Assembly: GCA_046563655.1 (NCBI GenBank)
Contig: CM102287.1
Coordinates: 6,262,001 to 6,326,000, forward strand
Length of the DNA: 64,000 nt
Source of the DNA: Yuukianura sp. NJ FZ-2021
Taxonomy: Eukaryota
Direction of reading: 5' to 3'
The notes beneath the pieces were generated by a model that was not told where the DNA came from, made no database searches, and saw only the letters and a list, made by a program, of their open reading frames with translations. Position numbers and translations under genes: made by a program. Below, in pieces: positions 14,269 to 18,807 of the stretch. Position 1 is the first letter of the stretch. Each line of letters begins with the position of its first letter.

Positions 14269-15979
14269 TCAGCGAACGCTGTTGTTTATTGCGATGCTTT
14301 CAACAAGATCTGCAGCCGCTGATTGACTTTTGGTAGATTGAATTCTTTTGGAAATTGATTTCATTCTTCGTTCCAGCAGTTCGTCGCCCAATAGCTGCTC
14401 AATGCTGCTCAGCAGTTCTTCCTCACTAGCCTCATAGGGATGTAGTCGCAAGCCAAGTCCAGTTTCATGTATACGCTGGGCATTATCTAAAGTTCAAAAA
14501 AAAACTGCGTCTTTTTTGTAATTCTAAAAGTCCTCCAGCTAAACAATAATTGCGATTTAGCTCATTAGAAAAACTCGCCTAGTTGATCCCACAGATGCCC
14601 TAGAACTAGCATCCGTTTGCCAAAGTAGAATGATTCTGTCACAGTGTTGTTCCCCCCGTGGGTAATCACAAGGTCAACCAATGGCAGCACTCTCGTCTGG
14701 GGAACGCTATTTTCACCCCACATATTGTCAGCCAGTTCCAGCTCGTCTCCTCGGGGTCCTACAAATATTCAAAATTATTATAATAAAAGTAAAAACTTAA
14801 CTTTTAAGAAATGCACCTTTTGACACGATGAATCTGTTTGGTGATTTGGCAAGTATTTTGATGAGTCGCTTCATGAGGTCAATGTCTGCTGATCCAATTG
14901 TACCCATGGAAAAATACACAAGTTTCCCGTGACCTGTCTTCAGCTTTTCCGGGACTTCGAACTTTTCTTCAGTTTCTCTTACGAAAGCGTCGAAGCGATG
15001 CCAGTTTGGTGGGTTCGGCCGTTCTGAAGTGTAGTCCAATTCCATAGGATACATGTAGATGTTTGCATATTCGCTGTGCTTTAACCAGTATGGATAAGTA
15101 TACTCCAGTTCGGGTCCGCCGTTCTCGCTAACCCACGTCTTAAACTTTTGAAAAATGTCACGAAACACTCTTTTCCCCTTGTCTCGGTACTTCTTAAATT
15201 CTTCTTTGTCTCCGTCAACAGGATATCCAGAGAAGGCTGGAGCAACATTGTCGTCACACATCATAAGCGGGTTGCAAGAGCAGCTGAGTACCCACGGCAC
15301 ACCTGAAAAAAAAGTTTTCTAAATAAGTTAACGTAATAAAACAACTCTTGTTGGTATTAACCCTGATTCATAAATGCACGAAACGTAAAGTGTTCACTCG
15401 TGAAAATAAAACAGATCTCGGCGGAAATCTTGAACGTTGAACCGTTTCCGAAATAATTGGCGCCAACGGACGGCCAGACGGACAGACAATGTCGATGGAT
15501 ACAGTAATACAGTAGCCTTCGCTACTTCATTAATAGATGAGAGATTTTTGCTGACTTTTACCTTGATTCATTAATGCTGGAATTTGAACATCAAAATCTA
15601 CAATGACGACATCAGGTTTGACTCTGTTCATGATTTCTAGAAACGCCGTATTTTGTAACTGCAAGGATTCAAACATTTCTTCGTACATTTCCAAATGCAA
15701 CCTTTCGTGTCTTTCTATTGGTGGAAGTCGTGCTGCATGTGCTAACTTTCCAAACATTTGGGCAAACGTATCAGTATCTCCCGGTTCCTTTGTCTTTTCC
15801 GATCCTTGATACAATTCCTCAATGAACCCATGAACTTCTAGCTTTCCTTTCCAACTCATTGGAGTAGCAAAAACAACACGATGACCTCTGCTAAGCAACT
15901 GTTGTGCAATACCCGTACTAGCATTGATGTGACCCACTGCCTCAATAGCCGCAAACAAAAACGTGAACTTTTGAACCAT
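14269..15979 (-). CDS. UDP-glycosyltransferase copy 3; exons 15979-15562, 15302-14817, 14758-14579, 14484-14269
   Basis: GHINASTGIA, VYFSMGT and [11 protein letters not shown] motifs; same intron positions as copies 1-2; GC donor at intron 3. Confidence 0.92.
15390..15530 (+). mobile_element. Possible DINE-1/Helentron-like short element in UGT3 intron 1
   Basis: cggacggccagacggacagac microsatellite-like tract followed by a gtagc-cttc-gctac stem-loop; this intron is much longer than in the paralogs. Confidence 0.4.
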
Positions 15980-16232
15980 ATTGTGCGTGAAATTAAAAAA
16001 TTTGAAGCGTAAGGAATTTGCTTAATTTTTGACAGACTTTGGGTTCTACACTTTCGTAGACTTGCTTTTTGACACTGAAGTGGTGGACTACAACTGCAGG
16101 AAAATTATACATGGTGTAAATTATGTTTGCAATTCTTTCCATGAAAAGGATATGCGAATTTTTTGCAATAAAAATTCGCAAATCACGATGCAGATTAGTT
16201 CAAGGTTGTCTGAATTCCTACTATTATCTATA

Positions 16233-16936
16233 GTAAATAAGGTGTTCATCAGTTTGGAGTAGCAGAGGGGTGCGCCCGCGTGCAAAAAAGGGGCGCGGGG
16301 GCGGGTGCGGCATAATTAATTTAAATTTGGTAAAAAAAAATGCAAAAGTGAAAAATAAATGAATGTTGATAAAAATCAATACTTTTAATAATATAACTAA
16401 TTAATTTTAATTAGTGTTTAAATAATTAATATGGAAAATTGTTTTTTTTGTGTTTTTTAAGTTTCACGTTATATAAACAATCAGTTAAGTAAAAATTGAT
16501 TAAAACGTGTAATAATATAATATAATTAATGAATTTTAATTAATTAATGAATAATTAACATAAAAAATTGATTTTTTTAGAAACTTGAATGGAAAAATCG
16601 ACTTTTTATATTAATTATTCATTAATTAATTAAAATTCATTAATTATATTATATTATTACACGTTTTAACAAGTTTTATTTAATTACTTGTCTGTATAAC
16701 GTAAAACTAAAAAAAACACAAAAAAACCAATTTTCCATATTAATTATTTAAATACTAATTAAAATTAATTAATTATATTATTAAAAGTATTGATTTTTAT
16801 CAACATTCATTTATTTTTCACTTTTGCAATTTTTTTTACCAAATTTAAATTAATTATGCCGCACCCGCCCCCGCGCCCCTTTTTTGCACGCGGGCGCACC
16901 CCTCTGCTACTCCAAACTGATGAACACCTTATTTAC
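16233..16936. mobile_element. Foldback/MITE-like ~700-bp near-perfect palindrome
   Basis: Arms of ~345 bp are reverse complements (gtaaataaggtgttcatcagtttggagtagcagagggg... / ...cccctctgctactccaaactgatgaacaccttatttac) around a short spacer near 16580-16594. Confidence 0.9.
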
Positions 16937-17306
16937 CACAAATAGTACTGAACAACACTATTAGTTATCAGTTATTAAAACAACCTTGGATTAGCTTACT
17001 TAAGTGCCACGTTCTATAAAATGAGCTAAATAAAAAGATTAATATGTCATCCATCTTGACAATATGAATTTTTATAGTTACTAATTATAATTACCTAAGT
17101 ACTTTTTGTTAGTTTAGATTTGGAATGCGATGAAGTTTTGATTTTACAGCTAAGTTTTGCGAAACCTTACCCTAAAAAGGCCCCAGTTTTTCAAATAATT
17201 TCTCAGCACCAAATCGTACCACCAGATTAGTGAAATACACTTTGCCTGAAATAGCTAAAGAAGTTTGTTAAAGAAATTCATCAAAGACAATTTTTCCCCC
17301 GCTTAC

Positions 17307-18407
17307 CTTGATTCATTAGTGCAGGAATTTGCACCCCCAAATCCAGAACGACGACATCAGGTTTGACTCTGCTCATGATTTCTAGAAATGCGGCGTTTTG
17401 AAACTTCACGGATTCAAACAATTCGTTGTACATTTCCAAAAACAAGTTTTCGTGTCTTTCTATTGTCGGAAGTCTTGCTGCATATGCAAATTTTCCTACA
17501 ATTTGGACCCATGGATTTGTATCTCCTTGCTCCTGCGTCTTTTCGGTTGAGGTAAGGTTTAACGATCGTCATTGTAGCCGCACAGTGTAGCCGCCGGCGG
17601 CCATCTTGAGTGGCTACAATGGGTGGCGACACTTGTGCGGCAACATTTGTAGCCGCTCGTGGAAAATTTTGCCTTGTAGCCACCATGTTGTAGCCGCACA
17701 TGCTAAATAAAACTGGCAACACTGCTTAACAATTTAAGATAACCTAACCTATAGACGCAATCAGTATTGCGAACATTAAACAACGTAACCTACAGACGCA
17801 ATCAGTATTGCGAACTTTAAAAAACCTAACTCCGCGCCTTCGGCGCGGGAAAATATAACAGGATTTTGGATTTCCTGAATCAAAAAGTAAAGGTTGCCAA
17901 TCTAATTATTTTTTTGTTGTTTCATTCAGAGAATTAGCCTTTATTTTCCCGCGCCGAAGGCGCGGCGTTAGGTTAGGTTAGCACTTGACAATAGTAATTA
18001 GATTCGAGGATTTCGTTTACGTTGACTGGCCAAATTCTAAAACATTGTTGCCAGCGTTATTTCGCATATGCGGCTACAGTAGAGTGGCGACAAGGGAAAT
18101 TTTCTCACAGGCGGCTACAAATGTTGCCGCTCTGGCGTAGCCACCCATTGTAGCCACTCAAGATGGCCGCCGGCGGCTACACTGTGCGGCTACAATGACG
18201 ATCGTTAAACCTTACCTCAACCGTCTTTTCCGAAGTCTGATACAATTCTTCAATGAACCCATGAACTTCTAGTTTTCCTTTCCAACTCATTGGAGTCGCA
18301 AAAACAACGCGATGACCTCTGCTAAGCAACTGTTGTGCAATTCCGGTACAGGCATTGATGTGACCCGCTGCTTCAACAGCAGCAAACAAAAACGTAAACT
18401 TTGACAT
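17307..18407 (-). CDS. Orphan UGT first exon (exon 1b), split by a MITE; candidate alternative first exon of UGT copy 3
   Basis: With the insert removed the frame is open: MSKFTFLFAAVEAAGHINAC...SEKTQEQGD...VQIPALMNQG, ending at an intact phase-1 donor G|gtaagc; TATA-like motif ~110 bp upstream; no exon 2-4 of its own. Confidence 0.75.
17545..18222. mobile_element. MITE with long TIRs and 8-bp TSD (Merlin- or Mutator-like)
   Basis: TSD gtcttttc at 17537-17544 and 18223-18230; first ~83 bp of the TIRs are perfect, imperfect out to ~175 bp; GG termini; internal taacctaacct and ccgcgccttcggcgcgg hairpins. Confidence 0.93.
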
Positions 18408-18807
18408 TTCAATTGAAATACAAGGCGTCTATATTTTTAATTTTGCACTATGTTGTGCTTTTTGGATTTTGTGCTATTTTATAAATTTCAGCTCAAAATC
18501 TCTTCCGCTTCCTTTTTATACCGAGTGTGATAATTCCAGCAAGAATGAAAACGAGTGCGGTTTTTGTCTACAGATTCTAAGCACGGTCACGATGCTTTTT
18601 GTCTAGTTCGCACGCACTGGAATGATTAGGCCGAAATTTTGATTAAATAGTTACGTAAAGTCTTTTAACATTTTTGATATTGATGCGATAATTACAATCT
18701 ACAGTTAAGTTAACGATAATAATCTAGGTTAAATTCTAGGGCTGTTAAAAATCTTTTCATAATTCAAAACCAATTTTGAAGTGTGCTAGACTTTCTCCGT
18801 TGTAATC

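Follow-up and report, generated by a model that had tools for sequence, protein, structure and literature searches.

Anatomy of an orphan first exon upstream of a bacterial-type UDP-glycosyltransferase gene in Yuukianura: a candidate alternative first exon interrupted by a transposon

The locus described here lies in a 64-kb window, i.e. the whole stretch of 64,000 nucleotides that was analysed (positions 6,262,001 to 6,326,000 of contig CM102287.1, assembly GCA_046563655.1), from Yuukianura sp. NJ FZ-2021; all coordinates below are those of the window. Its minus strand carries a cluster of three UDP-glycosyltransferase (UGT) genes, UGT1 (1680-148), UGT2 (4369-2788) and UGT3 (15979-14269), which have a four-exon structure and identical phases in common. 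Upstream of UGT3 there is one extra copy, of exon 1 alone, with its ATG at 18407. We term this copy exon 1b and the first exon of UGT3 proper exon 1a, and discuss exon 1b as a candidate alternative first exon for the downstream exons of UGT3, apparently maintained by selection and subsequently struck by a transposon. The spliced product of UGT3 has 434 amino acids and is encoded as follows (a slash marks the exon-intron border):

15562-15979, minus strand: UGT3 exon 1a, 418 nt, ATG at 15979, phase-1 donor AAG/GTAAAA
14817-15302, minus strand: UGT3 exon 2, 486 nt, acceptor TTTCAG/G; the candidate shared exon
14579-14758, minus strand: UGT3 exon 3, containing the HGGNNT...DQ donor-binding motif and followed by a GC-AG intron
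14269-14486, minus strand: UGT3 exon 4, containing the stop codon
16074-16109, minus strand: motifs upstream of exon 1a, TATAAT (16109-16104) and an initiator-like TCAGT (16078-16074), 33 nt apart; a reading of motifs only

The nine UGT introns of the window are 58-259 nt long. Intron 3 begins with a GC donor (G/GCGAGT) in both UGT3 (14487-14578) and UGT2 (3015-3106), while UGT1 has a GT there (G/GTTCGC), i.e. the GC-AG intron is conserved in two of the three paralogues. The cluster also includes, in the opposite orientation, the decayed remnant of a UGT (5688-6068, plus strand), with 40% identity to exons 3-4 and a broken donor-binding motif (NYPQGNNTVTE); it gives no Pfam match.

In a tblastn search with UGT3, exon 1b appears as two separate matches, one at 18407-18216 (89% over 64 amino acids, E 7e-32) and the other at 17550-17305 (68% over 82 amino acids, E 6e-32). 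The latter reaches a donor, CAAG/GTAAGC, after 17307, which is of phase 1 as in exon 1a. The parts of the exon, its upstream motif and the element between them are these:

18513-18520, minus strand: TATA motif TATAAAAA, 113 nt 5' of the exon 1b ATG
18223-18407, minus strand: 5' part of exon 1b, from the ATG at 18407 through the first copy of a target-site duplication (18230-18223)
17545-18222, no strand assigned: non-autonomous terminal-inverted-repeat element of 678 bp inside exon 1b, with ends GGTTGAGGTAAGG...CCTTACCTCAACC
17307-17544, minus strand: 3' part of exon 1b, from the second copy of the duplication (17544-17537) through coding sequence to the phase-1 donor

The coordinates, start codon, TATA motif and phase-1 donor equivalent to that of exon 1a, which a first-pass annotation had ascribed to exon 1b, are all present in the sequence. 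The same annotation took the entire interval 18407-17307 to be open, and in this it was mistaken: there is no open 1101-nt exon, the 678-bp element splitting it and a stop codon following after 76 codons.

The nature of the interruption is apparent from the comparison with exon 1a. The two exons pair in blastn as 15971-15792/18402-18223 and 15799-15558/17544-17303, which overlap by 8 nt within exon 1a. In exon 1b, identical 8-bp copies of GAAAAGAC (18230-18223 and 17544-17537) flank the intervening sequence, whereas exon 1a has this octamer once, at the homologous position, constituting an empty site in the paralogue. The intervening sequence itself has inverted arms of 192 nt that are 88% complementary. 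Given the flanking duplication and the inverted arms between the two matches, this is therefore a transposon insertion with target-site duplication, located at codon 62/63 of exon 1b, and the 678-bp element is a non-autonomous terminal-inverted-repeat DNA transposon comparable to miniature inverted-repeat transposable elements. There is no second copy of it in the 64-kb window, and an open reading frame (ORF) from it yields no Pfam match. When the element and one copy of the duplication are removed, exon 1b is an open frame of 415 nt in phase 1, comparable to the 418 nt of exon 1a. A small inverted repeat in the middle of the element (17823-17974, 33-nt arms, 97%, core CGCGCCTTCGGCGCG) is possibly a second, smaller element nested within it.

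Between the two first exons (17306-15980), a relaxed tblastn search finds no relic of UGT exons 2-4, the best match covering 11 amino acids at E 0.11, which upholds the earlier statement that no UGT exons lie there. The anatomy is that of a shared-exon locus: two first exons, each with its own ATG, TATA motif and phase-1 donor, stand over one set of exons 2-4. A putative intron joining 17307 to 15302 would be 2004 nt long, with exon 1a inside it. The first-pass annotation had named 15302 as the sole compatible acceptor; this is right for an acceptor that continues the UGT frame and wrong for the motif as such, there being 13 acceptor-like sites in the 2004 nt, 15302 included.

The similarity between the 1a and 1b regions is confined to the exons. 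Exactly two matches (90.6% and 81.4%) are returned by blastn and they stop at the exon borders, with the flanks at the level of shuffled sequence: 81 of 200 shuffles reach the upstream score and 65 of 200 the downstream score, as against none of 200 in the exon control. Within the exon, the near-identity of the first ~55 codons and the divergence thereafter, both remarked on in the first-pass annotation, are borne out: residues 1-63 differ by 5 substitutions and one indel, residues 64-139 by 24 substitutions. Nei-Gojobori estimates for the pair are 0.42 for synonymous divergence (dS) and 0.12 for non-synonymous divergence (dN), a ratio of 0.28, which is 0.13 in the first ~60 codons. As the two halves have similar dS values (0.39 in the 5' part and 0.45 in the 3' part), the near-identity of the 5' ~60 codons is attributed to stronger constraint, and gene conversion as its cause is rejected.

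Selection on exon 1b was evaluated with a codon model of exon 1 from 1a, 1b, UGT1 and UGT2 (138 ungapped codons). With synonymous branch lengths held equal for the two exons, a constraint that we judged reasonable because the exons belong to one genome and are only 2.4 kb from each other, the dN/dS ratio (omega) is 0.35 for 1b, 0.22 for 1a and 0.17 for the background; an omega of 1 for 1b is rejected (likelihood-ratio statistic 9.5, p 0.002), while the same constraint gives no difference between 1a and 1b (p 0.39). The rejection is robust to equal codon frequencies (p 0.005) and to dropping the loop columns (p 0.008), and most of the signal is contributed by the 5' 58 codons (omega 0.17, p 0.0014). 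A second line of evidence comes from an exon-1 comparison with 35 other family members, namely UGT1, UGT2 and 33 matches of at least 400 amino acids (out of 40) from the protein collection considered below: of the 25 columns that are conserved in 80% or more of them, exon 1b retains 22 and exon 1a 21. Together, an omega below 1 and the retention of 22 of the 25 conserved residues indicate that exon 1b was protein-coding for most of the time since its split from 1a.

With exon 2 as the query against a protein collection, 40 of 113 candidates match at E <= 0.001. These listed homologues carry PF00201, PF04101 and PF06722, with one of the 40 lacking a recorded domain, while the single UGT exons of the window give sub-threshold Pfam matches only. 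The closest identity to exon 2 is 67%, and the best named matches are from the mite Oppia nitens (41-47%). The 3' part of exon 1b as a query, searched against longer proteins only, yields 19 candidates, none at E <= 0.001; a 24-nt probe taken from the 5' end of exon 2 has no exact match among metagenome contigs, where a protein pattern of the exon 1b 3' part has 260 pattern matches, none of them confirmed. Among solved structures, the best matches are UGT203A2 (7LVY) and UGT202A2 (6PNT) of T. urticae, with E values for exon 2 of 1e-23 and 4e-17, respectively, and for exon 1 against spider-mite UGT structures of 4e-9 and 2e-7. The spliced translation of UGT3 has a C-terminal HGG..T..E ... DQ signature, which we take to be the nucleotide-sugar motif of UGTs. 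Homology across both domains thus identifies the window genes as GT1-family UDP-glycosyltransferases of the bacterial MGT/YjiC type. The earlier assignment to a bacterial-type family agrees with both the homologues and the spider-mite structures. Published work (PMC9113151) records the family in Acariformes, in the springtail Folsomia and in bdelloid rotifers.

Both exon 1a and exon 1b encode His17 and Asp128, which in a hand mapping align with the catalytic His25 and Asp140 of TuUGT202A2. For that enzyme, 16 acceptor-site or dyad residues are named in the accessible portion of its description (PMC10731231), and 14 of the 16 fall in the part aligned to exon 1, by the same hand mapping and with uncertain alignment in the loops. 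Five of 13 aligned pocket or dyad residues differ between 1a and 1b (I12V, A73V, F76V, M102L and D130G), which is no enrichment of differences at pocket-equivalent positions (5/13 versus 24/125, Fisher p 0.11). Because 14 of the 16 residues map to exon 1, its exchange would be expected to replace the greater part of the acceptor pocket and to leave the donor-binding part unchanged, and could thereby change the acceptor range.

These features can be assembled into a history that we favour at about even confidence, namely that exon 1b is an alternative first exon for UGT3 exon 2, kept by selection and lately invaded by a transposon. It would have originated by duplication of the first UGT3 coding exon, and the copy, which has a promoter-like region of its own, would have been retained by purifying selection; its position would allow it only the role of an alternative first exon with UGT3 exon 2. 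It would presumably have been transcribed from its own promoter and spliced from 17307 to 15302, yielding another enzyme that differs in its acceptor pocket and has the same UDP-sugar-binding part. The 678-bp transposon would then have landed in it, probably recently, such that in the assembled copy the 1b isoform has most likely been put out of action not long ago, possibly in one allele only. This history appears the most economical because one disabling event suffices.

Several observations weigh against it. The exon is split by the element as assembled, its frame ending with codon 76 (...EKTVEVRFNDRHCSRTV and then the stop), and the first exons number only two. The putative intron holds 12 acceptor-like motifs besides that at 15302, as well as two AATAAA, and use of the one at 16093, upstream of exon 1a, would yield a premature stop; a further caveat is that exon 1a has TATAAT and TCAGT motifs of its own. 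The decayed UGT copy at 5688-6068 shows that partial copies do arise in the cluster. As for selection, the 3' 80 codons alone are compatible with neutrality (omega 0.51, p 0.14), and when branch lengths are left free the test of an omega of 1 for 1b weakens to p 0.067, because the outgroups are saturated and too distant to polarise the synonymous changes.

Among the other explanations, exon 1b might be what is left of a complete UGT gene in tandem with UGT3, whose exons 2-4 were removed by a recent deletion, with the transposon arriving before or after, in which case sharing was never a selected state. Whole-gene tandem copies are the rule in the window, UGT1, UGT2 and UGT3 all having the same four-exon structure, the fragment at 5688-6068 is a further, decayed partial copy, and the selection signal fits such a relic equally well. 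However, it takes two recent disabling events, deletion and insertion, where the alternative-first-exon history takes one, and it has to accommodate the lack of any trace of exons 2-4 alongside a donor that is still consensus and a frame that is intact; moreover, once exons 2-4 had been deleted, exon 1b would still be positioned for splicing to UGT3 exon 2. We consider this relic origin somewhat unlikely, though a serious contender. A copy that was never functional, being a partial duplicate dead on arrival that merely drifted, would agree with an exon that is both orphaned and interrupted; yet a neutral copy at a dS of 0.42 would not be expected to have its frame still open, its donor at consensus and 22 of the 25 conserved residues in place, an omega of 1 is rejected, and the flanks are no longer recognisably alike whereas the exon still is. 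Judged by these sequence comparisons, such a copy is very improbable and the explanation is not tenable.

A different possibility is that the transposon is removed as an intron, the 1b isoform still being made despite the insertion. The candidate splice sites would be the following:

18214-18218, minus strand: candidate donor GAG/GTAAGG in the terminal repeat of the element, exon end 18216, phase 0
17533-17540, minus strand: candidate acceptor AGs at 17540-17539 and 17534-17533, each of which keeps the frame from the candidate donor

The donor fits the consensus from -2 to +5, and the two downstream AGs would add 3 residues (17539) or 1 residue (17533), in a loop where UGT1 and UGT2 are longer than UGT3 by 3 and 7 residues, i.e. 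where the family tolerates a change of length. Nonetheless, the fraction of T before the candidate AGs is 0.15-0.20, as against 0.30-0.65 in the nine real UGT acceptors, one of the candidates has an A at -3, and an in-frame placement is a one-in-three chance event. The resulting intron of 677-683 nt would also far exceed the 58-259 nt of the real UGT introns, and the element is present in a single copy in the window. Removal of the element as an intron is thus unlikely in our estimate, and it is with still greater reserve that we mention the more far-reaching proposal of a working two-promoter, shared-exon locus in a horizontally acquired, bacterial-type UGT family of an animal, independent of UGT1A, in which the donor in the repeat of the element makes a new intron.

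The alternative-first-exon history has its closest parallel in the vertebrate UGT1A locus, where variable first exons are spliced to common exons 2-5 and where disabled (pseudo) first exons are also known. As in UGT1A, tandem first exons with their own ATG, promoter motif and same-phase donor precede a single downstream set for the UDP-sugar-binding part, acceptor-pocket residues and the catalytic His are encoded by the variable exon, and the disabled exon 1b is comparable to the UGT1A pseudo first exons. In contrast to UGT1A, there are just two first exons here, of which one is interrupted; exon 1 spans 139 residues, part of the N-terminal domain rather than the whole of it; the family is of the bacterial MGT/YjiC type; and the locus is known here from DNA sequence alone. 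The original suggestion of a UGT1A-style exon-sharing locus is thereby retained in part: the two first exons over one exon 2-4 set and the purifying selection speak for it, and the interruption of exon 1b and its possible origin as a paralogue relic against it. Introners, which are intron-generating transposons, provide a further comparison, in that an inverted-repeat element with a target duplication lies in a coding exon and has a strong donor motif in its terminal repeat; here, however, one copy of the element is seen in the window, the acceptor would come from the host exon and the splicing is hypothetical.

Closer in sequence are the bacterial-type UGTs of mites, springtails and rotifers, with which the window genes share the His/Asp dyad and the closest solved structures (6PNT and 7LVY). 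For mites, tandem arrays of horizontally acquired bacterial-type UGTs resembling that in the window are described in the accessible portion of PMC9113151, but first-exon sharing is not described in the corresponding portions of the sources for these animals. In Drosophila, minor splice variants are noted for only two UGT genes in the accessible portion of PMC8010143, and an editorial on invertebrate UGTs (PMC8450408) contains neither the stem 'exon' nor the stem 'splic'. A literature search turned up no paper on the sharing of first exons among UGTs of arthropods or of the bacterial type; it did not extend to the two main papers on the family (Ahn et al. 2012 and 2014), and an earlier report is possible.

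Should exon 1b be spliced to exon 2, or have been so in the past, the variable first exons by which vertebrates broaden substrate range would have arisen anew in an animal UGT family of bacterial derivation, a clear example of convergence in the architecture of detoxification genes; the transposon insertion would then have either knocked out one isoform by natural means or given it a newborn intron. With exon 1b as only a relic, the locus would represent a usual phase of birth-and-death evolution in tandem genes.

The paralogues also display a distinct pattern in their C-terminal parts. The synonymous divergence of UGT3 from UGT1 and UGT2 is saturated over the first 240 codons, and in 40-codon segments across codons 281-400 (the end of exon 2, exon 3 and the start of exon 4) it goes down to 0.15-0.33; the low values occupy all three segments against UGT2 and one of three against UGT1 (0.77, 0.15 and 1.19). 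The pattern resembles that of gene conversion, by which the tandem paralogues (148-4369 and 14269-15979) would stay uniform in the UDP-sugar-binding part while their N-terminal parts diverge. If exon 1b is or was shared, the two routes to a variable front and a constant back, exon sharing and gene conversion, could be compared at this one locus.

A second structured repeat is found between exons 1b and 1a:

16222-16947, no strand assigned: foldback element of 726 bp, with 237-nt outer arms that are 97% complementary

It lies 243 bp 5' of the exon 1a ATG, is 92% self-complementary overall, with an AT-rich interior and GC-rich ends, and has no second copy in the 64-kb window. On the other side of exon 1b, a gene for an M14 zinc carboxypeptidase (18808-20773, plus strand) has a signal-peptide-like first exon followed by Propep_M14 and Peptidase_M14 (Pfam). 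It is transcribed away from exon 1b, with 400 bp from ATG to ATG, and the two may have a bidirectional promoter region in common.

Other genes of the window mark the host as a metazoan; they include M14 carboxypeptidases (Pfam) and, by eye, ORFs resembling C2H2 zinc-finger proteins, kinases and serpins. A PUS7-like ORF is placed with TruD/PUS7 clusters (Atlas, where the clusters are broadly eukaryotic), and a BCS1-like ORF has a best protein match of 39% identity. The segment 6695-7323 is repetitive and open in several frames on both strands, with periodic GDI/ATFQ-like peptides, and is likely a tandem DNA repeat rather than a gene.

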